Shown here: positions 20,591-57,057 of the stretch, one piece after another
How positions within the stretch are numbered: the stretch's first letter is position 1
Layout of the letters: each line of letters opens with the position of its first letter
DNA from: Candidatus Binataceae bacterium
GTDB lineage: Bacteria > Desulfobacterota > Binatia > Binatales > Binataceae
Length of the DNA stretch: 64,000 bases
Assembly (NCBI GenBank): GCA_035524375.1
Contig: DATKOZ010000035.1
Span: 135,663 to 199,662 of the forward strand
Direction: 5' to 3'
Program-made: the position numbers and the translations under genes
The notes under the pieces: generated by a model
The model's input: only the letters and a program-made list of their open reading frames with translations
Told to the model about the DNA's origin: nothing
Databases searched by the model: none

Positions 20591-21901
20591 TTATGCGGCG
20601 GTAGAGGCGCGCGCGGGCGCATCGATGCGCGCGGGTTCCGCCAATTCGACTTTGCGGCAGCGTAGGATCAATTCGCTGCGGGCGATATAGGCCGCTTCCA
20701 GCACCTCGAAGCCGTGCCGCTTGAGAATCTCGCGCAGCGAATCCTGCGTGTAATGCGTGATGTGCTCGTCCTTGTAGCCGCCCGGCATCAGGAACCCGTA
20801 AATCGGTTCGACCGTGCGCCAGCCGATAGTGGCGTAGTCGGGCGTGCCGAGAATCAGCGTTCCGCCGTCGCGCAGCACGCGGCGCATCTCCCTGAACAAG
20901 ACTTCGTCGTACGGGATATGTTCGATAACTTGCGAGCTAATCACGCAATCGAAGATGCCGGACTTGAACGGCAGTGCGAACGAGGATGCGTTGACCAGCG
21001 GGATGCCGTAGCGGCGCAGGAAACGGAGCTTGGGGAAGCCAAAATCCATGCCGACAGCGTCATTCAGGCTCTGCACGATCAGGCTGGAACCGCATCCTGC
21101 GTCCAAAGTGAGGCCGCTGCCGCGCGCCCAGTTGACGGTGATTCGATGCCGCCGGCGCTGCCAGAAGCGCTGGAACGGAATCAGGCTGTAGAATGCACGC
21201 TCGTCGTAGTCGGCCGATTCCAGCGAGTTGCGAGTCTTCCAGAGGTTCCACACCGAGCCGGCAATCGTCATGCCGAATGCGAACAGGCGCGCATGCGAGC
21301 GGCCTGCGCCGCGCGGAAAATAGACGAATGGAACTTCGACAACGCTGAAGCCGCGCGCGTACGCGCGCACCAGGATTTCCTGGCAGACCTCGAAGTTTAC
21401 GCTGTTGAGCTTGAGGTTCTCGATCGCCGCGCGCCGGTAGAGGCGGAAACCGCTGGACATGTCCTGCACCGGCATCGACAGCACCCGATGCATCACGATG
21501 TTCAGGAACTTGCTGGTGGCCTTGCGGATGAAATCGGTATACGCCACGCCGCCGCGCGTGTAGCGCGAGGCAACCACGATGTCGGCGCGGTTGCGCGCCC
21601 GCCACATCTTCCCGACGAAGTCGGGATCGTGGGACATGTCCGCGTCAAGAGTGAGAACGTAGTCGCCGCGCGCCTCGGCAAATCCGGTCTCGATCGCGCC
21701 GGCATAGCCGCGGCGGCGCTCCTTCACCACACGCGCGCCGAGTTCGGTGGCGACGTCGGGCGTGCCGTCAGTCGAGCCGCCGTCCACGACGACGATCTCG
21801 AAGCTGATGTTCTCGCGATCGAACCACGCCTTAAGGCGCGGAATCAGCTCGCGCAGATTGGCGGCTTCATCCTTGACGGGCAAAACGACAGACAGGTCCA
21901 T
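20591..21901 (-). CDS. Bifunctional glycosyltransferase family 2 / class I SAM-dependent methyltransferase
   Basis: N-terminal GT2 (LSVVLPVKDEAANL…VVDGGSTDGT, DPM1-like). C-terminal methyltransferase type 11 (LDAGCGSS…DCVISSQVIEHIP). Confidence 0.8.
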   Translation of the reverse strand: MDLSVVLPVKDEAANLRELIPRLKAWFDRENISFEIVVVDGGSTDGTPDVATELGARVVKERRRGYAGAIETGFAEARGDYVLTLDADMSHDPDFVGKMWRARNRADIVVASRYTRGGVAYTDFIRKATSKFLNIVMHRVLSMPVQDMSSGFRLYRRAAIENLKLNSVNFEVCQEILVRAYARGFSVVEVPFVYFPRGAGRSHARLFAFGMTIAGSVWNLWKTRNSLESADYDERAFYSLIPFQRFWQRRRHRITVNWARGSGLTLDAGCGSSLIVQSLNDAVGMDFGFPKLRFLRRYGIPLVNASSFALPFKSGIFDCVISSQVIEHIPYDEVLFREMRRVLRDGGTLILGTPDYATIGWRTVEPIYGFLMPGGYKDEHITHYTQDSLREILKRHGFEVLEAAYIARSELILRCRKVELAEPARIDAPARASTAA

Positions 21902-32164: not shown

Positions 32165-32698
32165 ATGGCGCGCTTGCCTGCGCGGGACCAGCGGGATATC
32201 GTTCACTTCGTGGCGACGATATCCAAAATTCTGGCGGCGACCGATTTTTCCGAGGATTCCAGCCTTGCGCTGCAATACGCCGAGGAAGAGGCGCGCAAAT
32301 TCTCCGCCGAACTGATCGTCCTGCACGTCGATCAGCCGCTGGCTCCCGTGATTATGACTCCGGAGCTTGGCCCCGCGATGGACGTGGGCGCGATGAACCG
32401 GATTGCGGAGGAGCAGCGCCTGATGGCGCAGCGCGAGCTGGACAAAATCGTCCGCAAGCTGCGCGACGGCGGGCTCAAGGCCAAAAGCATGCTCAAGGTC
32501 GGGTCTCCGTTCCTCGAAATCCTGCGCACCGCGCAGACCGAAGGCGCAGATTTAATAGTCCTTGGCACGCACGGCCGCACCGGCTTGGCGCACGTTCTGC
32601 TGGGCAGCGTGGCCGAGCGCGTGGTTCAAAAGGCGCATTGCCCGGTGCTGACGATTCGCCACCCCGACCGCAAGTTCAAGCATCCGCTTGAGAAATAG
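32165..32698 (+). CDS. Universal stress protein UspA family
   Basis: ILAATDFSEDS…LIVLGTHGRTGLAHVLLGSVAERVVQKAHCPVLTIR. The true start is probably the GTG at about 32207, given only 35 bp to the divergent hsp20. Confidence 0.8.
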   Translation: MARLPARDQRDIVHFVATISKILAATDFSEDSSLALQYAEEEARKFSAELIVLHVDQPLAPVIMTPELGPAMDVGAMNRIAEEQRLMAQRELDKIVRKLRDGGLKAKSMLKVGSPFLEILRTAQTEGADLIVLGTHGRTGLAHVLLGSVAERVVQKAHCPVLTIRHPDRKFKHPLEK

Positions 32699-32774
32699 CG
32701 CCGGCCCTCGCCCCGTATCAGCCGCAAATCGCGCCCATTGAATCGGGCTCGCATCGGCTGTTAGTAAAGCCGTA

Positions 32775-34469
32775 ATGTTTTCGTCAAACCGCCGCCGCTC
32801 GCATGCGTTCGTCCTGTCCGCGTTTCTGTCGCTGGCCATAAATGCCGCCGTGCCGTGCGGCGTCATCGCCGCCCCGCCGGCGCAATCCGCCGTGGGGCAG
32901 CATGCGATGGTCGTCTCCGAGAGCGCCGATGCCACGCATGCCGGACTGGCAATTCTCAAGCAGGGCGGAAATGCGATAGACGCCGCATGTGCGACCGCGC
33001 TTGCAACCGGAGTAACCAACCCGGGCGCATCCGGAATCGGCGGCGGCGGCTTCATGCTTATCTATCTGGCCAAGCCGCATGCGCTTTATTCGCTCGATTT
33101 CCGCGAGACCGCGCCGCTCAAGGCAACTCCAGACATGTACATCCGTAACGGCAAGGCTGACGAAGAGCTGGCGCGCACGGGAGCGCTGGCGGTTGCGGTA
33201 CCCGGCGAAGTTGCGGGCATTGATGCCGCGCTCAAGCGCTTCGGAACGATGAAGTTCCAGCAGGTCGCCGCTCCGGCGGAAAAACTTGCACAGGCCGGCT
33301 TTGCCGCCAGCCCGCACCTGGCGGACGAAATCGCAAAGAACGCCGCTGCGCTGGGCAACGATCCGCAATTGCGCGAGGTGTTCATCACGGCGGCCGGCGT
33401 GCCGCACAAGGCCGGTGACACGATCGTCGAGAAAAATCTGGCCACTGCGCTGAAGGCGCTGGGCGACGATCCGGCGGCGAATTTTTATCATGGCGATGTT
33501 GCCCGGCACATCGTCGCGTTGATGAAGGCCGGCGGCGGAATCATTCGAAAGGCCGATTTGGCCGCCTACCAGCCGGTTTGGCGCGATCCGATTCATCATC
33601 CGTACAAGGAATATGAAGTGTACGCGATGCCGCCGCCGTCGTCGGGCGTGGTGATTCTGGAGATGCTGGGGATGCTGTCGTCGGGACGGCTGGCGGGGCT
33701 GGGCTTGAATTCAGCGCCGTATTTGGCGCGGCTTATCGAAGTGATGCGCCAGGGGTTCATCGAGCGCGCGCGCCTTGGAGATCCCGCATTTAATCCGGCG
33801 CCAATCGATACGATGCTGTCGGATGCGCATATCGCGGAACTTCGCGACCGTGCGATGCATCATAAGGCACAGCCGGATGCAGTTCCGGCTCACGATCACG
33901 GAACCTCGAATCTGATCGTGGCTGACAGCGCCGGCAATATCGCCGTGATTACCACCACGATCAACACGGCGTTCGGGGCAAAAATCTCCGTGCCCGGCAT
34001 GGGAATCATCCTGAACGACGAGATGGACGATTTTTCGGTCGCACCGGGAGTGCCGAACGCATATCAATTAGCGGGTGCCGCCGCCGATGAGATCAAGCCG
34101 GGCAAGCGCCCGCTCTCTTCAATGTCGCCAATCATTGTTACGAAAAATGGGCAGCCGGTGATGAGTGCCGGCGGCTCCGGCGGCCCGATGATCGTAACCG
34201 GAGTTCTGCAGGTGACGCTTAATCTGCTCGACTTCCATATGGGGGTGGCCGGCGCGGTTGCCGCCCCGCGCATCCACGAGCAGGCCTCGCCCGACGTGGT
34301 CAGCGTGGAGCCGGAAATTCCCGTTGCGGCTACCAGCGAGCTGCGCCAGATGGGTTATGCGCTTAAAATCACGCCTACGACCGGCGCAATCGGAGCGGTG
34401 ACGATTGCACCGGGGGATCTTCGCGGAGCGTACGACCCGCGCAAGGGCGGGGGAGCCGAAGGCTATTAG
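32775..34469 (+). CDS. ggt: Gamma-glutamyltransferase
   Basis: Signal peptide; nucleophile Thr region GTSNLIVAD; TTTINTAFGAKISVPGMGIILNDEMDDF; GGSGGP. Confidence 0.9.
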   Translation: MFSSNRRRSHAFVLSAFLSLAINAAVPCGVIAAPPAQSAVGQHAMVVSESADATHAGLAILKQGGNAIDAACATALATGVTNPGASGIGGGGFMLIYLAKPHALYSLDFRETAPLKATPDMYIRNGKADEELARTGALAVAVPGEVAGIDAALKRFGTMKFQQVAAPAEKLAQAGFAASPHLADEIAKNAAALGNDPQLREVFITAAGVPHKAGDTIVEKNLATALKALGDDPAANFYHGDVARHIVALMKAGGGIIRKADLAAYQPVWRDPIHHPYKEYEVYAMPPPSSGVVILEMLGMLSSGRLAGLGLNSAPYLARLIEVMRQGFIERARLGDPAFNPAPIDTMLSDAHIAELRDRAMHHKAQPDAVPAHDHGTSNLIVADSAGNIAVITTTINTAFGAKISVPGMGIILNDEMDDFSVAPGVPNAYQLAGAAADEIKPGKRPLSSMSPIIVTKNGQPVMSAGGSGGPMIVTGVLQVTLNLLDFHMGVAGAVAAPRIHEQASPDVVSVEPEIPVAATSELRQMGYALKITPTTGAIGAVTIAPGDLRGAYDPRKGGGAEGY

Positions 34470-34586
34470 GCTCGATTTCTCCTGTCCGGATTTGCTGATA
34501 ATTTGTGGATAATGACCCGTTCGCATTCGCAGCCTTGACGCGGCGACAGTAATTCACGCGGTCGGCTGACTCGCGGCGCGGCGCAC

Positions 34587-36734
34587 ATGGAATCCATCAA
34601 CCGCACTCCTTCAACAAAGCAAAACCCTGAGCCGCTCCAAGTCGAGGGTTCGGGGGAGGGAGATACGGCAGCCGCGGCCCCTGCCGAAGAGCAGCAAGAA
34701 TCGTCCGCGTTTCAACCGTTTTTTACGGCGTTTGGCGCGGGCAACGCGCAAGCCGGGGCCTGGCTCGCGCGACTGCTGATAGTCACGGCTCTGGTTTACA
34801 GCCGATGCTTAAAGGGCGAGTTCGTATACGACGACCACGAGTGGGCAAATCATCGATTTGTCGCGAACTGGTCGTTCATTTGGAAGTCGCTGGTTCACGA
34901 TGCATGGTGGTTCTCCAATCCCGATCATTCTCCCGCAAGTTCCTATTATCGGCCGTTTCTGGATATCTGGACCGCGCTGAATTTCCATCTGTTCGGTTTG
35001 GCTCCGTTCGGGTGGCACGCGGCGATGGTGGTTCTCTATCTGATCGTCGTGTGGCAGGTGTTTCGCGTATCTGTGCTGTTGGCGCGCGATCAGTGGACGG
35101 GTCTTTTGGCCGCGATGCTGTTTGCGCTGATGCCGGCGCACGTCGAGTCAGTCGCATGGCCGTCGGCGATCTGCCAGCCGTTGCTGGCGGGGTTCGAGCT
35201 GGCAGCATTCGAGTTGTACCTTCGCCGCCGCGAGATTCATCCGCCCGATGATCGACTCGTGCGATGGCTGGGCTGGTCGCTGTTGTCATTCGCAGGGGCG
35301 CTGCTGACTTATGAAAGCGCAGTAACATTTCCGCTTCTAATCGCCGCTCACACGTTCATTTTTCAGGAAGGGAAGAGCGATGGCGAAGCCGGCGGCGAGA
35401 ATCCTCCGGTAATGGAATCTGCGAGTTCAACGCTCAGAGATCGAGTACACGCGGCGGTCGCCGCGATGTCGCCATATGCGATCGCGGTGGCGGTCTACTT
35501 TGGCGTGCGCTTTTGGGTGTTGGGATTTATCAGCCGGTCATATCCGGGCAATCGCACGTCCGCGCTCGAAGTCGCGCTGACGCTTCCGGGCGCACTATGG
35601 CGGTACCTGATGATCCTCCTGCTCCCGTGGCGGGCCGGCCCGGTTCATCACATGGATATCGTCCAAAGCGCCGCGTCGCTGGATTTTCTTCTGCCGATGG
35701 CCGGGCTAATCGCGGTTTGCGCCGTGAGCTTCACGTTACTGAGAAATAACTCGCATCGCCGCCTGTATCTATTCTGTGCGGCGTGGTTTCTGATCGCGCT
35801 TGCGCCGATGCTCAATATCGGCGGTCTTTTTCTGCAGGCATTTATACAGGATCGCTACGTTTTCTTTCCTTCGTTCGGGTTTTGTCTCATCGCCGCCGAT
35901 ATGGCCGCCGGGTTCGCTCGCGGCAGCGAGTCGCGGGAGAGATCCGTTCTGATCGGAGCGCTGGCCGTGGCAGCCGGATACTCGGTACTGCTCATTCAAA
36001 TTGAAGGCCTATGGCACGACGACGCGACCCTGTTTTCGCGCTGCGTGACGCAGACTCCACTGGTCGAGTTTTGCCATAACCGGATGGGACTGGCACTCGC
36101 ATCGCGCGGCGACTATGCCGGTGCACGCGGAGAGTTCGAGCAGGCGGCGGCCCTTGTTCCGGATGATGGCTGGAACCTCTACGATCTCGGGTTGGTCTAC
36201 GAGCATTTGGGCGATCGGCATACTGCGGCGGTGAAAATGGCGGAAGGATTGAAGCACGCGGAGGACCCGTCGCTGGACAATTTCATCCGGCTCGCGTTCG
36301 TAGCCGATACCGCCGGTGACGCGAACTTGGCGAATGCCGCCCTTGCCCGCGCCGCCGATATGCCCGGCGGTGCCGAAGCCGCCGCCCTGACGCAAGCGCA
36401 GTTCCGGTTTCGTCACGGAGATAACAAAGGCGCCGAAGAATCGGCACGTCAACTGCTCAGCCGTGATCCGAACAATGCTCAGGCACTGGTTACTTTGGGC
36501 TCGGCCCTTTCGGTGGAGCATCGGTATGACGAGGCGCTGGCAGCCTACCGGCGTACCGTGGAAATTTCTCCCGACGCACCGTTGATTCACTACATGCTCG
36601 CATCGACGCTGCATCAATTGGGCCGCGATCGGGAGGCGCACGACGAATGCACAATCGCGATCGAGGCCGCGCCCAACGACCCCAATGCGCGTGCCCTGAT
36701 GTCCGCCATTGAGCATGGCGGCCCGGTGCGCTAG
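34587..36734 (+). CDS. TMTC-like membrane protein (DUF1736-type multi-TM domain + C-terminal TPR repeats), paralog 1 of 3
   Basis: N-terminal about 10 TM with FVYDDH and HAESVAW motifs; C-terminal TPR array. Same architecture as paralogs 2 and 3. Confidence 0.7.
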   Translation: MESINRTPSTKQNPEPLQVEGSGEGDTAAAAPAEEQQESSAFQPFFTAFGAGNAQAGAWLARLLIVTALVYSRCLKGEFVYDDHEWANHRFVANWSFIWKSLVHDAWWFSNPDHSPASSYYRPFLDIWTALNFHLFGLAPFGWHAAMVVLYLIVVWQVFRVSVLLARDQWTGLLAAMLFALMPAHVESVAWPSAICQPLLAGFELAAFELYLRRREIHPPDDRLVRWLGWSLLSFAGALLTYESAVTFPLLIAAHTFIFQEGKSDGEAGGENPPVMESASSTLRDRVHAAVAAMSPYAIAVAVYFGVRFWVLGFISRSYPGNRTSALEVALTLPGALWRYLMILLLPWRAGPVHHMDIVQSAASLDFLLPMAGLIAVCAVSFTLLRNNSHRRLYLFCAAWFLIALAPMLNIGGLFLQAFIQDRYVFFPSFGFCLIAADMAAGFARGSESRERSVLIGALAVAAGYSVLLIQIEGLWHDDATLFSRCVTQTPLVEFCHNRMGLALASRGDYAGARGEFEQAAALVPDDGWNLYDLGLVYEHLGDRHTAAVKMAEGLKHAEDPSLDNFIRLAFVADTAGDANLANAALARAADMPGGAEAAALTQAQFRFRHGDNKGAEESARQLLSRDPNNAQALVTLGSALSVEHRYDEALAAYRRTVEISPDAPLIHYMLASTLHQLGRDREAHDECTIAIEAAPNDPNARALMSAIEHGGPVR

Positions 36735-36744
36735 CGGATGAGTC

Positions 36745-38817
36745 ATGGCTTCGCGTGAGCGAAAGGCTGCCTTTAAGGAAGCGAACCCGTCTGCCGATTC
36801 GGAAGGATTACGACCGGAGCTGGCAGATGAAAGTGATCCAGTGGCGGCACTTGCTGCTGCCTACGGCAACCAGCGATCGTGGCTGATTCGGTCTATGATT
36901 CTCTCGGCGCTGGTATTTTCGCCGGCGCTATTCAACGAATTCGTTTTCGACGACTGGGATCAGATCGTCAGCAATCGATATATCGGCAACTGGGCGTTCG
37001 TCTGGAAATCTTTCGTCAATGACGTGGTGTGGTTTCGCAATCCGCTGAATCTCCCACAAAGTGCGTTTTATCGTCCATTTCACAGTGTCTGGCTGGCGGT
37101 CAACTTTTTTCTGTTCGGTCCACATCCCATGGGTTGGCATGCGGCGGCTATCGTACTGCATCTGACCGTGGTGTGGCTGGCATTCCGGGTTTCCACACGA
37201 TTGGCCGGTGACGCTTGGACCGGCCTGATCGCGGCAACCCTGTTTGCGCTGATACCCATCCACGCCGAGACGGTTTCGTATGCCGCAGCAGTCGCGCCGA
37301 TGATTGCGGCGGCATTCGAGTTCGGAGCCTTCGATTTATATTTGCGCTGTCGCTTGGATGTGGAAGGGGCCCAATCGCGATCGAAGTGGAACTCGGTCGC
37401 GTTGGCATTGTTCGGGTGCGCGCTTCTGAGCTACGAGAGCGCGGCGGTTTTTCCGCTGCTCGTCGCGGCGCATACCTTCATTTTTTCTCGAGACGCCGGT
37501 GATGCTGAACTTCCGGTTGCTGATCGGGGGAGTAAGGCTGCTGCTGCGGCATGGCCCTATGCGGTCATTTTGGCGATTTATTTGGGGCTGCGGTTGCGGG
37601 TGCTCGGTTTCCTCAGCCAGCCGCATCCCTTGAATTCGCCGACTTGGCCCGAGGCGGTCCTGACGATTCCGGCGGCGATCGCAGCTGACCTGAAATTGCT
37701 TGCGCTGCCATGGCTTGCCGCACCGACTCATTCCCTGGAATTCACAAATCGCGTTTGGTCGGTGGGATTCATTCTGCCGCTATTGGAGCTGTCGATCTTG
37801 ACCGCCGCAGGTTTCTTCGCGCTGCGGAGGCATCCGCATCGCCGGCTGTATCTGTTTTGCGCACTATGGTTTGCGATCGCGATCAGTCCGACGCTCAACC
37901 TTCGCGCACTTTTCTCGCAGGCCGCGATTCAGGATCGGTACCTTTATTTCGCGTCATTCGGCTTCTGCGTGATGGCCGCAGATCTGGCGGCGAGCTATGC
38001 GCGCGCTGGGGAACTGCAGGCGCGGTATGCAGCGATCGGGACGGCAGCGGTGGGATTGATATACGCAACGATTTTGCTTTCGGTCGAGCGATACTGGCAC
38101 GACGACGTCGCATTGTTCTCACGATGCGTCGAAGAATCGCCGGATGATTGGATTTGGCACAATGCTTTGGGGGTGACGCTTGCGGGGCGGGGTGAGTATC
38201 TAAAGGCACGCACCGAGCTGGACCGCGCTAATTCGCTGCAACCGGATCAGGTCGGCAATCTTTATTATCTGGCATTGGTGGATAAAAGGCTCGGCGATTT
38301 GCAGTCGGCAGAAGCAGCGACTGCTGCGCGGCTGAAGCTGGTCAAGCACCCCTCAGCCGCCGCATATGCCGAACTGGCACTGATCGCCGATTCCGCCGGC
38401 GACAAGGCGGGCACTGAGGCGGCGCTCAAACAGGCCGCCGCGATGACGGGCGGGCCGGAAATCGCGAGCTTGGCGCGTGCGGAATTGAAATTCAGGCATG
38501 GCGACACCAAGGGCGCTGTGCAAGAAACTAGCGGACTGATCGCGCATCCATCGAGCGATCCTGATCAGCGAATCTCGCTGGCAATGGAGCTGATGTCGGA
38601 GCATCGATACGCTGAGGCACTCGACGCATTCAAGCGGGCCGCCGCGCTGCGGCCCGGTGACGCCGGGCTCCATTATCGCATCGCATCGACACTTCACAGC
38701 CTGGGCCGCGATAGCGAAGCGCGCGACGAGTGCGCGCTGGCGCTCGCCAAACTGCCAAACGATCTTGACGCAATATCATTGATGGCCGAGCTAAAGCGCG
38801 GCGGCGCGCCGCAATAG
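36745..38817 (+). CDS. TMTC-like membrane protein (DUF1736 + TPR), paralog 2 of 3
   Basis: FVFDDWDQIVSNRYIGNWAFVWKS…; starts 11 bp after paralog 1. Confidence 0.7.
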   Translation: MASRERKAAFKEANPSADSEGLRPELADESDPVAALAAAYGNQRSWLIRSMILSALVFSPALFNEFVFDDWDQIVSNRYIGNWAFVWKSFVNDVVWFRNPLNLPQSAFYRPFHSVWLAVNFFLFGPHPMGWHAAAIVLHLTVVWLAFRVSTRLAGDAWTGLIAATLFALIPIHAETVSYAAAVAPMIAAAFEFGAFDLYLRCRLDVEGAQSRSKWNSVALALFGCALLSYESAAVFPLLVAAHTFIFSRDAGDAELPVADRGSKAAAAAWPYAVILAIYLGLRLRVLGFLSQPHPLNSPTWPEAVLTIPAAIAADLKLLALPWLAAPTHSLEFTNRVWSVGFILPLLELSILTAAGFFALRRHPHRRLYLFCALWFAIAISPTLNLRALFSQAAIQDRYLYFASFGFCVMAADLAASYARAGELQARYAAIGTAAVGLIYATILLSVERYWHDDVALFSRCVEESPDDWIWHNALGVTLAGRGEYLKARTELDRANSLQPDQVGNLYYLALVDKRLGDLQSAEAATAARLKLVKHPSAAAYAELALIADSAGDKAGTEAALKQAAAMTGGPEIASLARAELKFRHGDTKGAVQETSGLIAHPSSDPDQRISLAMELMSEHRYAEALDAFKRAAALRPGDAGLHYRIASTLHSLGRDSEARDECALALAKLPNDLDAISLMAELKRGGAPQ

Positions 38818-38818
38818 C

Positions 38819-40843
38819 ATGGCGGGCAAGACCGACTCCCATAGCGGGGCCAAGTTGGTTGTTCGTCCGGGCACCGAACGGGTTTGGCTGATTCGCATTC
38901 TAATCGTAACCGCGTTGTTCTACAGCCGCAGCCTTGGCAACGAGTTTGTTTTGGACGATTTGCCGCAAATTGTCCTCAATCGATACATCGCCAGCTGGTC
39001 GTTCGTTTGGAAGTCGCTGGTCAACAATGCGCTGTGGTTCGTCGATCCGCTCCATCCGCCGCCGGTGTCGTATTACCGGCCGCTACAGAACATCTGGTCC
39101 GCACTAAATTTCCATCTATTTGGACTGAATCCGATCGGCTGGCATGCGGCGATGCTCGCGCTTCATTTGCTGGTGGTTGTCCTCGTATTTCGTCTGGCGT
39201 CGATTTTGACCCGCAGCCCATTCACGGGATTGCTCGCAGCGGCACTGTTCGCGTGGATGCCGGTGCATGCCGAAGCAGTGGTATGGCCGGCGGCGGTAGC
39301 GACGCCATTGAGCGCGGCCTTCGAATTGGCCGCATTCGAGTTCTATTTGCGCAGCCGCGGCGGCGGCGCAAATAACCACAGTCGCCCCGGACTTGCAATT
39401 TCGCTCGGCTTGTTCGCCGGCGCCCTGCTTAGCTACGACAAGGCGATCGAATTTCCAGCTCTTATCGCCGCATACGCATATATTTTTCCGCGCGAATTAG
39501 TTGGCGAAAATCGCGCGGTTGAAAAGGCTGCCGCTGCGCCGATATCGACTCGCGGAAGCGCCGCGCTCATCGCCGCGTGGCCCTACGTGCTCGTAACGGT
39601 GGCATACATTACGCTGCGATATTGGGTGCTCGGATTCGTTTTCCATTCGAATCTCGGCAGCGATCTGACCGCGCGGGAAGCCGTGCTGACGGTCCCCGCC
39701 GCGATAACGCGGTACGTCGCGCTACTGGTGTTTCCGTGGATGGCCGATCCGGCCCATCCATTGGACTTCGCCGGCAGCGTCGCACAAGCGGAATTCTTGC
39801 TGCCGGCCACGGCATTGACCGCGCTTTTTATCTCGGGTTTTTTTCTGTTTCGCGCTCACCGGCATCGGCGCCTTTATCTGTTTTGCGCCGCATGGATGCT
39901 CATCACGCTTGGCCCGATACTCAAGCTTGATGCGCTGTTTCCGCTGGCTGCCATTCAGGATCGCTATCTTTATCTGCCATCGTTCGGATTTTGCGTAATA
40001 GCGGCCGACATTGCAGCCGGTTTCGTCGCAGAAGGCGAGCGCACCGCTCGAATCGCCTGGGTCGCAACCGCGGCGGTTGGGATCTTTTACGGATGGAATC
40101 TCTTCTCGGTGCAGCAATATTGGCACGACGAGGTTGCGTTGATCCGGCGTCACGTTCAAAAGTCTCCCGAAGCCGCCGCTTACCACGGTGGTCTTGGCAT
40201 GGCGCTGGTTGCACGCGGCCAATATGCCGATGCACGGACGGAACTTGAGATTGCCAAGAAGCTCTCGCCCGGCGACACGGAAAATCTGTACGATTTGGCG
40301 CTGGTTGAAGAGCGGCTGGGCGATTCGCGCGCCGCGGCGGAAGAAATGAACGCATGGCTTGAACACATCAAGTCGCCGTCGCCGGACGCATACGCAAAAG
40401 CTGCGCTGTTCGCGGATGCCGCCGGTGACACCACCGGCGCCAACGCGGCGCTGGCTCGCGCAGCCGCAATTCCGGGCGGCGCTGAAGTTGCCACTGTAAC
40501 GCGCGCACAGGTGCTGCTGCGACATGGTGATTCCAAAACCGCCGAGCGGGAACTGAGGAAGGTGCTCGATCGTCATCCTCTTAACGTTGCAGCGCTGGGC
40601 GCACTCGGTGCCTTGCTGTCAGATAACCGCCACTATGACGAAGCGCTCGACGTGCTTCAGCGTGCCGCATCGATCTCGCCCGAGGATCCCAATCTTCATT
40701 ACCAGCTTGCCACGACACTGTATCAATTGGGACGAAATCCCGAAGCGCAAGCGGAGTGTGCGGTTGCGCTTTCACGAGCGCCCTACGATCCTAATGCGCG
40801 TGCGCTGATGGCTCAAATCGAGCGTGGCGGAGCGCCGCACTAG
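38819..40843 (+). CDS. TMTC-like membrane protein (DUF1736 + TPR), paralog 3 of 3
   Basis: FVLDDLPQIVLNRYIASWSFVWKS…; starts 2 bp after paralog 2. Confidence 0.7.
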   Translation: MAGKTDSHSGAKLVVRPGTERVWLIRILIVTALFYSRSLGNEFVLDDLPQIVLNRYIASWSFVWKSLVNNALWFVDPLHPPPVSYYRPLQNIWSALNFHLFGLNPIGWHAAMLALHLLVVVLVFRLASILTRSPFTGLLAAALFAWMPVHAEAVVWPAAVATPLSAAFELAAFEFYLRSRGGGANNHSRPGLAISLGLFAGALLSYDKAIEFPALIAAYAYIFPRELVGENRAVEKAAAAPISTRGSAALIAAWPYVLVTVAYITLRYWVLGFVFHSNLGSDLTAREAVLTVPAAITRYVALLVFPWMADPAHPLDFAGSVAQAEFLLPATALTALFISGFFLFRAHRHRRLYLFCAAWMLITLGPILKLDALFPLAAIQDRYLYLPSFGFCVIAADIAAGFVAEGERTARIAWVATAAVGIFYGWNLFSVQQYWHDEVALIRRHVQKSPEAAAYHGGLGMALVARGQYADARTELEIAKKLSPGDTENLYDLALVEERLGDSRAAAEEMNAWLEHIKSPSPDAYAKAALFADAAGDTTGANAALARAAAIPGGAEVATVTRAQVLLRHGDSKTAERELRKVLDRHPLNVAALGALGALLSDNRHYDEALDVLQRAASISPEDPNLHYQLATTLYQLGRNPEAQAECAVALSRAPYDPNARALMAQIERGGAPH

Positions 40844-40894
40844 CGCTGAAGCGCGGATTTCGCCGGACTTGGCCGCGGACTAAACTCATCGACC

Positions 40895-42613
40895 ATGCCC
40901 GAGATCGCGCCCAGCGCTGAAGTGTCGCATAGCGGCGAATTGCATATCCCGCCGTCAGCCCCATCCGCTCGCGAGGCCGCGACGGTCGCTGTGCTGTCAT
41001 CGGCGTTGTTTCTATTTCATCTGGGATCGTTCGGGCTGTGGGAGCCGGACGAGGGCCGCTATGCCGAAATCGCGCGCGAAATGATCGAGAGCGGCGGGCT
41101 AATTGTGCCGCACCTGAACTACGTCGCATATATCGAAAAGCCGCCGCTACTCTACTGGGCAACAGCGCTATCGATGCGCATCTTCGGCGTGAATGAATTC
41201 GCGGCGCGCCTGCCGGTTGCGATCGCCGCCGTGATCGGCGTGCTCGCGGGTTATTATTTTGTGTATCGGGTTTTCGATCGCCGCCGCGCAATATTGGCCG
41301 CCGCGATTCTTGCGACCTCGCCGCTGTACGCCGTATTGGCGCAGACGCTGACCACCGACATGATGCTGGCCGCGATGGTGACGATCGCATGGTTCGCGCT
41401 CTTTCTTCACTGGCGCGAGGGTGGCAGGTGGTGCTGGATCGCATACGTGGCAATGGCGCTCGCGGTGCTTGCGAAAGGACCCGTCGGCGCGGCGCTGCCG
41501 ATTCTCGCCACGGCGGCCTTTCTTCTCTGGAACCGCGAATTGCGCGGTTCTATAGGAAGGTTTCGCGTCATACCGGGAATCGCGCTGATGCTCGCGATCG
41601 CTGCGCCATGGTTTGTAGTGGCGGCAATCCGTGAGCCGGGCTTCACTGATTTCTATTTCATCGGCGAACATCTCCGCCGCGCGCTCGATCCAACCTACAG
41701 CCACACCGAGCCGTTCTACTTTTATTTTCCGGTGATTGTATTGGGCCTGCTGCCGTGGTCGTTGATGTCGCCGCTGTTTGCATGGAGCGAAGTGCCGCCG
41801 AATCCGGCGCGCCGCTTCTGTATCTGTGCGGCGACGGTGACAATAGCCGCCTTCTCATGTGCAAACGCAAAATTGATTCCATACGTTCTTCCGGCGGCCG
41901 CGCCGATTTCTGTTTTGATCGCGGATGGCATCGCGACATGCGCATGGCCGGCGCCCGGAGCACGTGCGGCGGTGCGGCCTCCCGACTCGCGAATTTTGCG
42001 CGAGGTTGGCCCGCTGCTTTCTTTGATGGGCGTCGCCGCAATTGCATCCGCAATTGAGGCCGCGCATTTCAGGACGCCATATGTGATGGCAGTTAGGCCT
42101 GCTCTGGTTGCTATCGGCTTGATTATGCTGGCCGGCGGAATGGTGGCGACCGCGATGTTCCGGGCGCGCCGCGCGGCGGCTGGACTTGCCGCGATAACGA
42201 TCACGATGGCGTTCGCCCTGATTGCGGGAGGATGGGCGCGAATCGATGCGGAACCGCTGCGTTCGTATGCGGATCTTAGCCGCACCGTCGCAATGAAGGA
42301 GCCGGATGCCACCCTCATCTGCTACCATCGCTATGTGCAATCGCTGGCATTCTACAACCGCCGTCGCGTAATCCTTGTTGGCCAGCTCAACGAGCTGGAT
42401 TTCGGGGCAAAGCGTGCCGATGATGCCGCGCAATGGTTTCCAACCACCGACGAGCAGCTGCTCGCGCTGTGGAAGCAGCCGAAAAAGAGCGTGCTCTTGA
42501 TCGATCAGCCGGAACTGGAGCGGCTTGGAGCGCGGCTGGCTCCATACGAATTGATCGCCGCCGAGGGGCGCAAGCGCGCAATCATCAAAAGTGACGCAGC
42601 CGATTCCAAGTGA
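40895..42613 (+). CDS. Glycosyltransferase family 39/83 (ArnT/PMT-like, dolichyl/undecaprenyl-phosphate-sugar dependent)
   Basis: LWEPDEGRYAEIAREMIESGGLIVPHLNYVAYIEKPPLLYWA is the ArnT/PMT N-terminal signature; 572 aa multi-TM. Confidence 0.8.
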   Translation: MPEIAPSAEVSHSGELHIPPSAPSAREAATVAVLSSALFLFHLGSFGLWEPDEGRYAEIAREMIESGGLIVPHLNYVAYIEKPPLLYWATALSMRIFGVNEFAARLPVAIAAVIGVLAGYYFVYRVFDRRRAILAAAILATSPLYAVLAQTLTTDMMLAAMVTIAWFALFLHWREGGRWCWIAYVAMALAVLAKGPVGAALPILATAAFLLWNRELRGSIGRFRVIPGIALMLAIAAPWFVVAAIREPGFTDFYFIGEHLRRALDPTYSHTEPFYFYFPVIVLGLLPWSLMSPLFAWSEVPPNPARRFCICAATVTIAAFSCANAKLIPYVLPAAAPISVLIADGIATCAWPAPGARAAVRPPDSRILREVGPLLSLMGVAAIASAIEAAHFRTPYVMAVRPALVAIGLIMLAGGMVATAMFRARRAAAGLAAITITMAFALIAGGWARIDAEPLRSYADLSRTVAMKEPDATLICYHRYVQSLAFYNRRRVILVGQLNELDFGAKRADDAAQWFPTTDEQLLALWKQPKKSVLLIDQPELERLGARLAPYELIAAEGRKRAIIKSDAADSK

Positions 42614-43586
42614 TTCGAGGGCACCATCGCCCGGCCAAGCGCCCAAGCGCGGCGATCATCCATATCGTGCGTTTGTGATTCGCGCCGGCTTGGGCATCGC
42701 AATCGCGGTATTTCTGCTCTACCACTTCGGCGCGCGCGCGATCTTTCAAGCAATCGGCCGCGAGCGGCCCGCCTACTTCATCACCGCGGTGATAATTTAC
42801 ACATTGGGGCAATTGATCCCCGCGTGGCGATGGCAAATGCTTGCCGCAATCGTGAAAGTGCACGGCGCGTTCACCGAGTTCGCTTCGTACGTTTACATCG
42901 CGATGTTCACCAACTTGTTTGTGCCCGGATTGCTTGGTGGAGATGCCGCGCGCTCCATTTATCTGGGACGGCGGCATAGCCGGATGGGCGAGGCGGTTGC
43001 TTCGGTCGTCGCCGACCGGGCCCTGGGGCTGATCGTTCTGTTTTGGCTGGCAGCATTCGCGGCGATTTTTCTCAATTTCGCGGCGCTGCCGCCCGCAGTG
43101 ACACATCCGGTGATCGCGGTTGGCGCAGCAGCTATGGCGGGTTATCTCGCATCGCCATTGGTGGCGCGGCTGATCCATCTGATGCCCGGGCCGATTCGGC
43201 GCGCTGGCGGAATCGTCGCGCCGTATCTCCATCATCCGCTGGAATTGATCGGGCCGATCGGATTGTCGCTTCTGCTTCAGGTCGAGCTGGCATTTTGCCA
43301 GTTTGTGCTCGCGAGAGGGTTGGGGCTGCCGTTTGGACTTTCGCTGTTCGTGCTGTGCGTTCCGATTTCCAATGTATTCACCAGCCTGCCGCTGACGCTC
43401 GGAGGCATCGGCGTGCGTGAGGCCGCCAACGTTGCGCTATTCGGGATGGCTGGAATGAGAAAAGACGACGCGATCGCGCTGGGTCTTTTGTGGGATGCGG
43501 CGTTGATGCTCGGCGGTCTGGCCGGAGCGATCGCGTTTGTTACGACGCCCTCGCCCGGTTCAACCGGGCATCCCGGCAAGGAGTAA
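42591..43586 (+). CDS. Lysylphosphatidylglycerol-synthase-TM-domain (UPF0104) flippase-like protein
   Basis: Multi-TM protein with the GGDAARS… motif typical of LPG_synthase_TM/AglD-like proteins often encoded next to GT2/GT39 genes. Confidence 0.7.
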   Translation: MTQPIPSDSRAPSPGQAPKRGDHPYRAFVIRAGLGIAIAVFLLYHFGARAIFQAIGRERPAYFITAVIIYTLGQLIPAWRWQMLAAIVKVHGAFTEFASYVYIAMFTNLFVPGLLGGDAARSIYLGRRHSRMGEAVASVVADRALGLIVLFWLAAFAAIFLNFAALPPAVTHPVIAVGAAAMAGYLASPLVARLIHLMPGPIRRAGGIVAPYLHHPLELIGPIGLSLLLQVELAFCQFVLARGLGLPFGLSLFVLCVPISNVFTSLPLTLGGIGVREAANVALFGMAGMRKDDAIALGLLWDAALMLGGLAGAIAFVTTPSPGSTGHPGKE

Positions 43587-43611
43587 TCTGATCGGAAGAT
43601 CGCCGCCGACA

Positions 43612-43893
43612 ATGGAGCCTGACATCGAAAAAGTGCGTGGTGATTGGAATAAGCGCGGATTCGGCTGCGACGTATGGACCGATCCGCCCGGCCAGGTGTG
43701 GAACGGCTATGTTCATCCGGTGGACGAACTGCTGATGGTAGTCCAGGGGCGGCTCGAACTGGAGATCGACGGCAAGCCCGTCCAGCCAAAAACGGGCGAG
43801 GAGATTTTCATCCCCGCGCATGCTTGCCACACCGTACGCAACATCGGCGGCACCACCGCGCGATGGCTGTACGGCTACCGCGGCCGCACCTGA
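43612..43893 (+). CDS. Cupin domain protein
   Basis: Cupin motifs …HPVDELLMVVQGRLELEI…IFIPAHACHTVRNIG. Confidence 0.6.
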   Translation: MEPDIEKVRGDWNKRGFGCDVWTDPPGQVWNGYVHPVDELLMVVQGRLELEIDGKPVQPKTGEEIFIPAHACHTVRNIGGTTARWLYGYRGRT

Positions 43894-43922
43894 AGCATTT
43901 GCATCGATACGTTAGGGCAAAT

Positions 43923-44645
43923 TTATCGCGATGCGAACATGCGTCCCGCGCCGTAGGTGACTGCCGCCGCCGCAACCCCGGTCAGCATGCTCTCCAGACC
44001 GCTGCGCCACCACGGGCGGCTGGTGATGATTGTCTTTACGGCGCCAACCACGAATAACACGACGACGGTTCCGATCGCCGAGGCCATCACGCCGCGCGCC
44101 GGGTCGACGAACAAGTAGGGTGCAACCGGGACGGCTGCGCCAAGCAGATAGGAAAGTCCCACCGCAAAAGCCGAGCGCAGCGGCGGCTCGAAGGAAGATT
44201 CGTCGAAACCCAACTCCTCGCGCATCATGACGTTGCGCCATCTTTGCGGATCGGCGGTGATGTGCGCGACGATTTGCTCGAGAAGCGCGCCGCTGAAACC
44301 CTTGGCACGATAGATTTGATTGATTTCGTCGCGTTCGCGCTCGGGCCATCGATTGATTTCGTCGCGCTCGCGCTCGATTTCGCTCTGGTAAAACTCTATC
44401 TGCGAGCGGGCTGAGATGAATGCCGCCAGTCCCATCGAGACCGCCCCGCCCAGCATCTCCGCCAACCCCGCCATCACGGCGATGTTCCCGGTCGCAAACG
44501 CGCCTGCCACGCCGGAGGTCACCGCGAATGATGCCACCAGCCCGTCGTTCAACCCAAGCATCACGTCGCGCACCCAGGTGCCGCCGGCGGCATGCACCTG
44601 CTCGGTGTGATGGTCGTACTCGCGCCTGCGGACTGAGAGTGCCAT
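43923..44645 (-). CDS. VIT1/CCC1 family iron/manganese transporter; carries a 33-bp in-frame tandem duplication
   Basis: LGLNDGLVASFAVTSGVAGA motif. Start reset to MALSVRRREYDHH (44645); the listed ORF extended into the upstream kinase gene. See finding on 44318–44383. Confidence 0.75.
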   Translation of the reverse strand: MALSVRRREYDHHTEQVHAAGGTWVRDVMLGLNDGLVASFAVTSGVAGAFATGNIAVMAGLAEMLGGAVSMGLAAFISARSQIEFYQSEIERERDEINRWPERERDEINQIYRAKGFSGALLEQIVAHITADPQRWRNVMMREELGFDESSFEPPLRSAFAVGLSYLLGAAVPVAPYLFVDPARGVMASAIGTVVVLFVVGAVKTIITSRPWWRSGLESMLTGVAAAAVTYGAGRMFASR

Positions 44646-45445
44646 CAGGACTTCTTCGCTCCGCCGCGCGCCTTGCGCCGATCGATTTGCGATTTCATCG
44701 CCAAGATCTCGGCGACGATTCTGCGCGAATCTCCGCGCGCAGGCCGCCCTCCAAGGTATGCATACAGAAAATCGAGCCGCGCCGCGCGGCATAGAAAGCG
44801 CCCGATACTGCGATCCAGATGCACCAGATTAAGCATCCTGCGCTCCCACGAGACTGGCCGCTTGCCGCCGGGGCGCCGGAAATCTTCAAGGTCGATGAAA
44901 TAGACGCGATAACCGGTTAGGTTGTCGCCCTCGACCATGACGTTGGTCTCCTGAAGGTCGCGCGTGTACAGACCGGATTCGTGGAGCCGGCGCACCTGAC
45001 CGGCGACCGCGTGAGAGATGCAGCGAAGACGCCGGACGTCGCGGCCGCGAATCCCGCGCGGGCCAAGCGCGAAGCGGCTTAACGATTCGGCACGATCGAG
45101 CGGTTCGCTGATGAGATAACAGTAGCGAAGCGCGCCCGCATGATAGGCCTCAACCGCGGCGATCGGTTCGGGATGCGCCAAGCCGGCCGCCTTGAGCATT
45201 GCCGCACCCTTAAGCGCGCGCGCGGCGCGCGAGCCGCGCGCGCGTTCGGCAATCCCTCGCCGCCATGATGGACTCTCGACGCGTTTCAGGAACGCGCGGC
45301 CCGCGCCCGGTACATCGATGAAGCCGGCCAAGGTGCGGCCCTCCGCCTTAAGCGGGCGGAAATCCGGACCCTTAATCAGTTCCGCGGCCCTGAGCGCGGC
45401 GGCGCGCCACGCAGGCGAGCGCGCATGGAGAACTACCGTGCGCAT
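44645..45445 (-). CDS. Kdo/lipopolysaccharide kinase (InaA/RIO-like) family protein
   Basis: Kinase catalytic loop YTRDLQETNVMV and FIDLEDF (DFG-like); 266 aa. Confidence 0.65.
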   Translation of the reverse strand: MRTVVLHARSPAWRAAALRAAELIKGPDFRPLKAEGRTLAGFIDVPGAGRAFLKRVESPSWRRGIAERARGSRAARALKGAAMLKAAGLAHPEPIAAVEAYHAGALRYCYLISEPLDRAESLSRFALGPRGIRGRDVRRLRCISHAVAGQVRRLHESGLYTRDLQETNVMVEGDNLTGYRVYFIDLEDFRRPGGKRPVSWERRMLNLVHLDRSIGRFLCRAARLDFLYAYLGGRPARGDSRRIVAEILAMKSQIDRRKARGGAKKS

Positions 45446-55021: not shown

Positions 55022-55765
55022 TCACCGGCGGTTTAGTTTCGCAAGCGCGCTTTGCGCCGCACCGCGTACGCCGGCATCGGTGTCGGACTCAAGACATCTG
55101 TTTAAGATTCTGGCCGCTTCCGCGCCCGTCTCGTCGATCCGGGAGAGCACGGAGACGGCGGCCAGCCGCACGAATCGGTTTTCGTCCGCAAGCGCGCGCT
55201 CGATCGCCGCGATTACATCGCCGCCGCAACATCCAAGATCGCGGATGCAATAGAGCGCCATCCGGTGAACGTTAGGCTCGCCATGGCCTGCGAGCTCGAG
55301 CAGGCGGGCGCGAATCTCATCCGGATGCCGTAAGCCGAGCCGGGTGAGAAGTTCCGCCGCCGACCATCTAACGTCGCTGTCGGGATTACCCAGCGCCTCC
55401 GCGATCGCGTCCACTGCGTCAATCCCGAACGCATCGCCATCGATCCGCGAAAGAGCAAATGCCGCGCCCCATCGCATCCGGGGGCTGGGATCGCGAAGGG
55501 CCGCGCGCAACATTGCCGCCGCCCGTTCATCGCTGGCGCCGGCAATTGCGGCCAGCGCTTTCGCTGCGCCGAGCTGAACCGATTTGGCCGCGGCGCCGAC
55601 GCATCGCACCAGTGCAGCCATCACTTCATCGGAGACGCGCTCGCCGGGTGCGGCGGCAATGTTCGCGATTGCGGCGGATTGGATGCGCGGATCGGCGCCG
55701 GAAAGGCCGTCAATCAAGCGCCGGTCTGTGTCGTCTGCCGCCAAGGGGGACCTGCTATGCGGCAA
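55022..55765 (-). CDS. HEAT repeat-containing protein
   Basis: Repeated …DPSPRMRWGAAFALSRI…/…NPDSDVRWSAAELLTRLG…/…DENRFVRLAAVSVLSRI… (PBS-lyase HEAT repeats). Confidence 0.7.
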   Translation of the reverse strand: MPHSRSPLAADDTDRRLIDGLSGADPRIQSAAIANIAAAPGERVSDEVMAALVRCVGAAAKSVQLGAAKALAAIAGASDERAAAMLRAALRDPSPRMRWGAAFALSRIDGDAFGIDAVDAIAEALGNPDSDVRWSAAELLTRLGLRHPDEIRARLLELAGHGEPNVHRMALYCIRDLGCCGGDVIAAIERALADENRFVRLAAVSVLSRIDETGAEAARILNRCLESDTDAGVRGAAQSALAKLNRR

Positions 55766-55842
55766 TGCTATCGGGCGCGATCCGGCCCCGACAAGGAGCG
55801 GCTATTCGGCTGGATCGCGCTATACTTCGGCAGGGGCCGGAA

Positions 55843-56820
55843 ATGAACGCTGCGAAATGGACTCTTGCCGCCATTGCGATTGTGGGCGCAAGCATCGCGA
55901 CGCTCCAGGCCATCGCGCAGTCGGGCACAACGACCGCCTGCGTGATCGGCGAGCCGCATGGCCCGACACCGCCGCGCGCACATCCGCGTGACCTTTTTGC
56001 TGCCGAGGATACGCGGTTAACAGTAACTTCGTTGGTGCCGGTCAATCCCAATTTGCAACCAAGCAGCGTTATGCTAGTTCAGGTTGATTCAAGTGGGACT
56101 CCAATCGCCACTTTGGGCCCGATGTATGACGACGGCACTCATGGCGACGCAGTGCCCGGCGACACCCAATACACCGCCCAGCCTACCCTGAATCCGCCGG
56201 CAGCAGGCCAGATATATCTGGCTGTCCAAGCCACCTACTCCAGTACTCCGGGATGTCGCCAGTCGAAAAACAATGACTGGGACATTGTTGTCTCGAGGCC
56301 ACGGGTCCCGGTTGCACAAATAAAAGCAGAGTGGAATGCCCATCAAGCGGCAATCCAGTTCTACGAAGGCGAAAAAAAGGATGGAGTCGATCCGGACCAG
56401 GCGAAACAAGACCTGAAGACTTTTATGATGGCGAGCTACGGTCCCAACGGTACTATCTATCCCGGATTAGTAGAAAAAGTGGCTACACCTTCGTTGGGTG
56501 GAAGGCTGATAATGATTACCTTTAGCTCCGGAGGGGTATTTGGCATCGCCGATTCGCCGCCGGACTTTTTGGAAGGTACGGGGGCCTCAAAAACGTCGAA
56601 ATCGCATATTGGCAAATCACTTGAAAGGCAAGGGGTGAGTACATCTGCGCGAAAACGCAAAGCACCCATTACCTACAACAGCAACAAGCTGTCTTCCCGT
56701 AGCAAACCCGCACAGGCACCCATACTGCCACAAGCGCGCCCTCCGGTCACCCAACAAGGCGCTGGCGGCCCCAATGCCAGCCAGGAGAAGGTCAAGCAGG
56801 CCACCGAGAGCAAGCCATGA
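55843..56820 (+). CDS. Secreted hypothetical protein, duplicate copy A (Ser/Lys/Pro-rich C-terminal tail)
   Basis: Signal peptide MNAAKWTLAAIAIVGASIATLQAIAQ; conserved core …LGPMYDDGTHGD…; about 325 aa; about 88% identical to copy B. Confidence 0.6.
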   Translation: MNAAKWTLAAIAIVGASIATLQAIAQSGTTTACVIGEPHGPTPPRAHPRDLFAAEDTRLTVTSLVPVNPNLQPSSVMLVQVDSSGTPIATLGPMYDDGTHGDAVPGDTQYTAQPTLNPPAAGQIYLAVQATYSSTPGCRQSKNNDWDIVVSRPRVPVAQIKAEWNAHQAAIQFYEGEKKDGVDPDQAKQDLKTFMMASYGPNGTIYPGLVEKVATPSLGGRLIMITFSSGGVFGIADSPPDFLEGTGASKTSKSHIGKSLERQGVSTSARKRKAPITYNSNKLSSRSKPAQAPILPQARPPVTQQGAGGPNASQEKVKQATESKP

Positions 56821-56980
56821 ACCACATCGCCGTGAGAGGGCTGCAAAACAGGCGCTCGCCGGGTGCGGCGGCAATGTTCGCGATTGCGGCGGATTGGATG
56901 CGCGGATCGGCGCCGGAAAGGCCGTCAATCAAGCGCCGGTCTGTGTCGTCTGCCGCCAAGGGGGACTTGCTATGCGGCAA
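56792..56980 (-). pseudogene. Truncated duplicate of the 5' end of the HEAT-repeat gene
   Basis: Its first 42 codons (MPHSKSPLAADDTDRRLIDGLSGADPRIQSAAIANIAAAPGER) are near-identical to the start of 55022..55765, then it diverges to a stop. Confidence 0.55.
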
Positions 56981-57057
56981 TGCTATCGGGCGCGATCCGG
57001 CCCCGACAAGGAGCGGCTATTCGGCGGGGTTGCGCTATACTTCGGCAGGGGCCGGAA

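Follow-up and report, generated by a model that had tools for sequence, protein, structure and literature searches.

Three consecutive genes in a 64-kb stretch of the genome of a Candidatus Binataceae bacterium (contig DATKOZ010000035.1, positions 135,663 to 199,662; hereafter the window) encode proteins, designated P1, P2 and P3, which combine a polytopic membrane domain with a C-terminal array of tetratricopeptide repeats (TPRs) and which, judged by profile comparison, are very probably GT-C glycosyltransferases of the TMTC family. The eukaryotic members, TMTC1-4 (CAZy family GT105), are the protein O-mannosyltransferases of cadherins and protocadherins; as to the bacterial proteins, we put at roughly 0.6 the probability of the reading as a whole, namely that P1-P3 are periplasm-facing, polyprenyl-phosphate-sugar-dependent glycosyltransferases probably acting on proteins. 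As far as sequence comparison can tell, they represent at this one locus an extensive, old and lineage-specific expansion in Candidatus Binataceae, and the two genes that follow them (here G4 and G5) belong to an unrelated module.

Architecture of P1-P3 and kinship to the TMTC proteins

P1 (34587-36734, 715 aa), P2 (36745-38817, 690 aa) and P3 (38819-40843, 674 aa) are, together with G4 and G5, five co-directional open reading frames (ORFs) on the + strand. A sequence-only reading of this stretch had described three tandem ORFs of about 700 aa with a common architecture, and this description stands: the gaps from stop to next start measure 10 nt (P1-P2) and 1 nt (P2-P3), and the common arrangement of a membrane domain followed by a C-terminal TPR array is borne out by Pfam, AlphaFold2 and pairwise identity. 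In pairwise comparison the three proteins are 46–50% identical over their full length, the membrane domains being 48–51% and the TPR domains 43–51% identical. P3 is 100% identical to a protein from a metagenome-assembled genome (MAG) of Candidatus Binataceae at NCBI. No further TMTC-like copy is present within the 64-kb window, and a repeat search of 34300-41000 returned the paralogy signal only (periods of 2083 and 2026 nt).

Pfam recognises P1-P3 by TPR families only, many of which match at aa ~450–710, that is, in the C-terminal ~230 residues (in P1, on the + strand, the array runs from about aa 480); the N-terminal 440–480 residues gave nothing relevant at E≤10, with PF08409 (TMTC_DUF1736) and PMT_2 unmatched, and neither PMT nor MIR has a Pfam match anywhere in the three proteins. 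AlphaFold2, run with an 80-sequence alignment, modelled full-length P3 with a pLDDT (predicted local distance difference test score) of 93, and residues 1–445 alone with a pLDDT of 92. The model has 11 membrane helices (aa 19–434), with long loops after transmembrane helix (TM) 1 and TM7, and then 14 TPR helices (aa 438–668), or about seven TPRs. Because the N-terminus and an HRHRR loop at residues 346–350 of P3 are basic, the positive-inside rule predicts a periplasmic position for the loop with the DD motif, for the loops EL4 and EL5 and for the TPR domain.

When the full-length model was compared with the PDB by Foldseek, TPR proteins dominated the matches, and the membrane domain was therefore modelled alone. 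Down to E ~0.3 all of its matches are GT-C enzymes which use lipid-linked sugars: STT3A (8b6l_I, E 1.6e-5), AglB, Pmt4, ArnT (5f15, E 5e-4), DPY19, PglB, Pmt1/2, Emb and ALG3/9, with TM-scores of about 0.5 on the query; from rank 32 (E ~0.3) onward, transporters and other folds appear, mixed with two more Emb chains. No structure of a TMTC-family enzyme was found in the PDB copy searched, and the alignment profile of the membrane domain matched none of the PDB sequences at E≤10.

Within the GT-C enzymes the kinship is to the TMTCs. An alignment of 31 membrane-domain sequences (P1-P3 and relatives from Binataceae, Acidobacteriota and one archaeal locus) was compared with the N-terminal regions of human, zebrafish and fly TMTC1-4 (12 sequences; supplementary file 2 of PMC7801869). 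The hidden Markov model (HMM) of the bacterial alignment matched all 12 animal proteins end to end (122–182 bits), the animal HMM in turn matched P3 (95 bits), P1 (87 bits) and P2 (78 bits) and left G4 unmatched, and hhalign aligned the two families over 393 columns with a probability of 100% (E 1.5e-49), compared with 92.7% over only 132 columns for the bacterial membrane domain against the ArnT-like family of G4. The label "TMTC-like" given in the sequence-only reading is thus well founded, P1-P3 being by these measures true homologues of the eukaryotic TMTC O-mannosyltransferases. Its DUF1736 label has to be dropped: PF08409 is matched by none of the three even at E≤10, and among the 31 aligned family members by a single one (E=0.057; PMT_2 is matched by 7/31). 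The Pfam model fails because the DUF1736 loop has diverged, its DNP and DW motifs being absent. The TMEM260/DUF2723 family was considered as well and set aside: DUF2723 is absent from the Pfam families that were listed for P1-P3, and likewise from those listed for the alignment of 31 members (25 of its 28 families), although no comparison with a TMEM260 sequence or structure was made.

The likeness to TMTC1-4 extends to the order of the domains, in that a GT-C domain of 11 TMs precedes a C-terminal array of TPRs lying on the non-cytoplasmic side, and to a series of motifs (names and definitions as in PMC7801869): the DD after TM1, YRP in EL1, PxH(A/V)ExV corresponding to HPxHTEAV, (K/Y/H)E after TM5, (E/D)RxxY within EL5 and, where the TPRs begin, a junction of the form W-x-(D/E). 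The DD of motif M1 is found as FVYDD in P1 (34821-34835), FVFDD in P2 (36940-36954) and FVLDD in P3 (38945-38959), all three motifs, like those below, lying on the + strand, and aligns with FV(H/Y/F)DD of the TMTCs. Of M2 (SHKSYRP) the YRP is kept, as YYRP in P1 (34944-34955) and P3 (39071-39082) and FYRP in P2 (37066-37077), and the His-Lys is not. HPxHTEAV is kept as PxH(A/V)E(S/T/A)V (PAHVESV at 35133-35153 in P1, PIHAETV at 37255-37275 in P2, PVHAEAV at 39260-39280 in P3), and M7 (ERxxY) as DRY(L/V)(Y/F) (QDRYVF at 35847-35864 in P1; QDRYLY at 37930-37947 in P2 and 39956-39973 in P3). Of the two motifs named beforehand, FV(Y/F/L)DD is therefore present in all three proteins as proposed, and the second needs correction in P1, which has HVESV and not HAE. 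A lack of the acidic DD/DE motif on proper alignment had been named as one of two outcomes that would speak against the proposal; the DD of P1-P3 was found to align with the catalytic DD/DE of TMTC, ArnT and PMT.

Conservation was counted over 80 Binataceae-type paralogs. Asp46 is kept in 79/80 and Asp47 in 76/80, Tyr86, Arg87 and Pro88 in all 80, His313 in 78/80, and Asp381 and Arg382 in 79/80. The most conserved segments are the periplasmic loops EL1, EL2 and EL5 (54–60% mean pairwise identity), while the corresponding value is 45.5% for the whole membrane domain and 39.6% for the TPR domain. Taken at the level of sequence, such a distribution is what a conserved active site in the periplasm, joined to a partner-binding domain that drifts faster, would show.

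An expanded family in Binataceae

That P1-P3 are "triplicated" holds in so far as three paralogs are adjacent, and it understates the situation, as at least 22 TMTC-like copies are present on ten different contigs of a single Binataceae MAG (JBOHWK01). A homologue search returned 457 relatives; almost every named top match comes from Binataceae, and often several of them lie on one contig. In a scan of genome collections, which was seeded by one peptide pattern only and gave 76 loci, subsequent HMM searches revealed tandem arrays of 2–4 or more genes in many Binataceae loci. The Acidobacteriota loci mostly have one TMTC-like copy; these relatives, in contrast to the Binataceae subfamily with its large tandem arrays, also keep the KE and Asp motifs considered below. 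Since the Binataceae paralogs are rather uniformly ~44–53% identical to P1, P2 and P3, with no clear one-to-one orthologue, the expansion is old and star-like, and P1-P3 are not the product of a recent local triplication. On a still wider scale, phmmer with the P3 membrane domain against a library of 1.84 billion representatives matched 22,739 clusters at E≤1e-3, of which 338 reach E≤1e-30.

Full-length TMTC-like proteins in poorly characterised prokaryotes have been noted before, for example AMJ42_05695 of Deltaproteobacteria bacterium DG_8 (PMC7801869), to which P1-P3 are, by description, likened as further prokaryotic TMTC homologues of GT-C plus TPR architecture. The kind is therefore already known, though uncharacterised, and of interest here are its more than 20-fold expansion in Binataceae, against four TMTCs in vertebrates, and the variant EL4 motif. 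A literature search found no paper characterising a prokaryotic TMTC homologue and none on glycosylation in Binatota.

Two peculiarities of the TMTC-like loci may be mentioned. In six of them (L012, L018, L026-L028 and L035, long-read "MFD" MAG contigs) several TMTC-like copies are split into 2–3 adjacent ORF fragments, which could be due to long-read frameshift errors or represent real pseudogenes. Further, a polytopic membrane protein of ~730 aa with about nine hydrophobic segments recurs beside some of the arrays in Binataceae loci (L002, 14039-16291, - strand; also L006, L016, L020 and L032); it has no Pfam match, and no similarity between it and the TMTC-like proteins could be detected.

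Proposed function and competing explanations

P1-P3 would be inner-membrane GT-C enzymes in which an 11-helix catalytic domain is followed by a periplasmic solenoid of about seven TPRs. An undecaprenyl-phosphate-linked sugar, in place of the dolichyl phosphate mannose (Dol-P-Man) used by TMTC1-4, would be bound between the membrane helices, and a single sugar would be taken from it at the periplasmic face. There, catalysis or binding of the acceptor may fall to the leading Asp of the DD that follows TM1, and Arg382 and Tyr383 of EL5 together with Glu/Asp207 and His313 may bind phosphate and metal. Most likely, the sugar would go to Ser or Thr of an envelope protein which is held, or chosen, by the TPR solenoid. 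One chemistry could thus serve many partners, with the catalytic loops kept while the TPR domains have drifted further.

The use of such a donor is proposed by analogy with TMTC, ArnT, PMT and TfpW, which gives good grounds for expecting P1-P3 to employ a lipid-linked sugar and to act in the periplasm; that the acceptor is a protein is favoured by the same kind of argument, with moderate confidence. TfpW of Pseudomonas aeruginosa Pa5196/PA7 is a GT-C pilin D-arabinofuranosyltransferase of the inner membrane, for which 11 TMs are predicted; a DDx motif in its first periplasmic loop is essential, a sizeable TPR domain extends into the periplasm, and the enzyme O-glycosylates a protein from a polyprenyl-phosphate-sugar; its gene adjoins that of its substrate, pilA (bioRxiv 10.1101/2020.04.19.049825). 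P1-P3 are like TfpW in their bacterial GT-C plus TPR architecture, a comparison made by published description; unlike tfpW, their genes have no adjacent pilin gene.

A bolder extension, which we regard as tentative and less likely than not, is that in Binataceae the TMTC-type proteins, numbering over 20 in a genome, have radiated as protein O-glycosyltransferases with a shared donor chemistry, each TPR domain being tuned to different envelope proteins. Such a "one enzyme per substrate class" system would parallel the TMTC1-4/cadherin pathway of animals and might even be its ancestor, with the His of EL4 taking the place of the metal ligand of DW. If P1-P3 and their paralogs are protein O-glycosyltransferases, the expansion implies that a phylum widespread in soil has an extensive envelope glycoproteome still to be explored; the bacterial homologues, being small, compact and confidently modelled, could also be tractable systems for studying the TMTC mechanism.

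Several observations weigh against assigning P1-P3 a TMTC-like activity towards proteins. The active site differs from that of the TMTCs, and activity is therefore not guaranteed. The DUF1736 loop (EL4) lacks DNP and DW, the latter being replaced in the alignment by (A/V/T)H (PWRAGPVH at 35625-35648 in P1, PWLAAPTH at 37708-37731 in P2 and PWMADPAH at 39734-39757 in P3), such that His313 falls on the Trp position of DW, and an Ala or Ser on that of its Asp, which in the TMTCs was proposed as a metal ligand. In M4, KE(T/Q), the Lys is changed to Tyr in all three proteins, giving Y-E in P1 and P2 and Y-D in P3 (LLSYD, 39425-39439), which thus has Asp at position 207 where the family has Glu; most Binataceae paralogs have H-E or Y-E, while Acidobacteriota have K-E. 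Likewise, the Asp of RxD (M3) is lost in the Binataceae subfamily and kept in Acidobacteriota. The TPR domains diverge only modestly more than the membrane domain. Clustering of the genes around Binataceae arrays revealed neither a polyprenyl-phosphate-sugar synthase nor a candidate substrate gene which is consistently adjacent; those that recur are unrelated housekeeping genes, and among the neighbours are genes for enoyl-CoA hydratase, SDR, luciferase-like monooxygenase, peroxiredoxin and a sigma factor.

The main rival, which we consider rather unlikely but still deserving of attention, retains the glycosyltransferase activity and changes the acceptor: P1-P3 would act on envelope glycans or lipids (lipopolysaccharide (LPS) core, O-antigen, exopolysaccharide or peptidoglycan-linked polymers), and the TPRs would dock to envelope machines. 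Several bacterial GT-C enzymes of solved structure, ArnT and EmbA/B/C among them, indeed transfer to a lipid or a glycan, and the sugar and metal motifs of the TMTCs altered in P1-P3 (RxD, the K of KE, DW) fit this explanation, too. The NCBIfam matches of the TPR regions resemble the polysaccharide-export TPR proteins PgaA, BcsC and PrsT, all of them below the cutoffs, and LPS machinery exists in the organism, as the window encodes LptF and LptG, from which it follows that it makes LPS and has two membranes. Against a glycan or lipid acceptor stand the closest relatives by sequence, the TMTCs, which are protein O-mannosyltransferases, and TfpW, the only characterised bacterial GT-C plus TPR enzyme, which modifies a protein; moreover, no polysaccharide gene cluster flanks the arrays.

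A second rival was prompted by the two genes downstream of P3, which the sequence-only reading had joined with P1-P3 into a single five-gene cluster for protein O-glycosylation. G4 (40895-42613, + strand, 572 aa; Pfam PMT_2, PMT and Arnt_C) begins 51 nt after P3. It had been taken for a GT39 enzyme, but its best full-length match is ArnT of Cupriavidus metallidurans (PDB 5ezm; E 1.5e-46, residues 39–558 of 572) and it carries the Arnt_C domain (PF18583, E 1.4e-13) and no MIR domain, which makes it GT83-type. Like ArnT (PDB 5ezm/5f15), it also has the motifs PDEGRYAEI (PDEGRYAEIA, 41045-41074, + strand) and EKPP (41135-41146, + strand); unlike ArnT, it reaches 203 bits in the equivalog model NF009784, the cutoff being 567, has no arnBCADEF genes nearby, and is partnered not by ArnE/F but by G5 (42591-43586, + strand, 331 aa), a flippase-like membrane protein whose gene shares its first 23 nt with the 3' end of G4. 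The description of G5 as a protein of the type of the lysyl-phosphatidylglycerol synthase membrane domain agrees with its match to Pfam LPG_synthase_TM.

A metagenome scan with G4 gave 80 loci (L081-L160) whose orthologues are 51–68% identical. G5 follows the G4 orthologue wherever the contig reaches that far, and there is no TMTC-like ORF within 10 kb of it in any of the 80; conversely, neither an ArnT-like nor a flippase-like gene neighbours the TMTC-like arrays of other Binataceae loci. G4 and G5 are thus conserved without TMTC-like genes and the arrays occur elsewhere without ArnT-like partners, so that the five-gene cluster is a juxtaposition of two unrelated modules. In the window, the 6.4-kb block with P1-P3 lies between a gene for gamma-glutamyltranspeptidase (GGT; 32775-34469, + strand), which marks the upstream edge of the P1-P3 stretch, and G4 (from 40895), and in most of the 80 loci GGT, preceded by Usp, is found upstream of the ArnT-like gene and GGT usually abuts it. 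As gene order indicates, then, the triple is inserted next to the G4-G5 module, although the search of 34300-41000 found no flanking insertion repeats around P1-P3. G4 and G5 form an independent module, conserved on its own, which probably serves to modify lipid A or some other lipid or glycan of the envelope.

It could still be argued that the five genes together constitute a single pathway dedicated to protein O-glycosylation, in which the flippase-like protein supplies a lipid-linked sugar and the ArnT-like enzyme and P1-P3 modify different proteins. They all point the same way, the spacings being 10, 1 and 51 nt plus the 23-nt overlap, there is no evident terminator, and a scan of 34300-44100 found promoter- and terminator-like sites no commoner than in shuffled sequence; co-transcription of P1-P3 with the ArnT-like pair is therefore possible in this organism, which speaks against a clean separation of the two modules. 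Furthermore, all four GT-C enzymes would use polyprenyl-phosphate-sugar donors. Yet the synteny described above, with 80/80 G4 loci free of TMTC-like genes, G5 and mostly GGT staying with G4, and arrays elsewhere standing alone, contradicts a single cluster, and the ArnT signature motifs and Arnt_C domain of G4 point to a lipid acceptor, which together render a common pathway improbable. The adjacency of P1-P3 to the ArnT-like/flippase-like pair is accidental and, as a lesson for annotation, is not to be read as a pathway.

The third rival, that P1-P3 have lost catalysis and serve as scaffolds or chaperone-like TPR proteins in the membrane which merely keep the GT-C fold, could draw on the several changed ligand-binding motifs of the TMTCs, on the Asp for Glu at position 207 of P3 and on the expectation that some copies in a large paralog family may be inactive, but is very improbable given that DD, YRP, His313 and DRY are kept in 76–80 of 80 paralogs and that conservation is highest in the periplasmic loops, as expected for an active site under selection.

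A candidate for donor supply, and other genes of the window

As a candidate synthase of the sugar donor, the sequence-only reading had pointed to a fusion of a GT2 domain with a class I S-adenosylmethionine-dependent methyltransferase at 20591-21901 (- strand). The fusion is real, and unusual; its GT2 domain is of the polyprenyl-phosphate glycosyltransferase class and is closest to the Dol-P-Man synthase of Pyrococcus (5mlz, E 4e-29), followed by ArnC and GtrB; NCBIfam matches to AglJ and to Dol-P-hexose transferase are below the cutoffs. The gene is a reasonable candidate for a polyprenyl-phosphate-sugar synthase, and its link to P1-P3, from which it lies 13 kb away on the opposite strand, is only a lead; no homologue was found in the 80 G4 loci, and the surroundings of other TMTC-like arrays were not searched for one.

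The gene order Usp-GGT-ArnT-like-flippase-like (32165-34469 and 40895-43586 in the window) is kept in most of the 80 loci, which stem from soil and peat metagenomes, and in two of these (L116 and L123) other, non-TMTC genes are inserted at the same junction of GGT and the ArnT-like gene. A gene for a kinase-like protein of the Kdo/WaaP family of LPS kinases (44645-45445, - strand), 1 kb downstream of G4-G5, fits an LPS-modification neighbourhood, yet it is not conserved in related loci.

Towards the other end of the window, a Septu anti-phage pair is encoded on the - strand (PtuB, 2271-2873, PADLOC E 4e-62; PtuA, 2870-4744, E 2e-230), adjoined by a type II DNA methyltransferase (4745-5650, - strand, E 4e-79). 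The GC content of this stretch (2271-5650) is 0.525–0.53, compared with ~0.61 elsewhere, and because of this low value it is probably a horizontally acquired defence islet. Lastly, two tandem paralogs on the + strand (55459-56820 and 56863-58035) each have a short "choice-of-anchor X" match (NCBIfam NF041940, just above the cutoff), and their products are possibly surface-anchored proteins.

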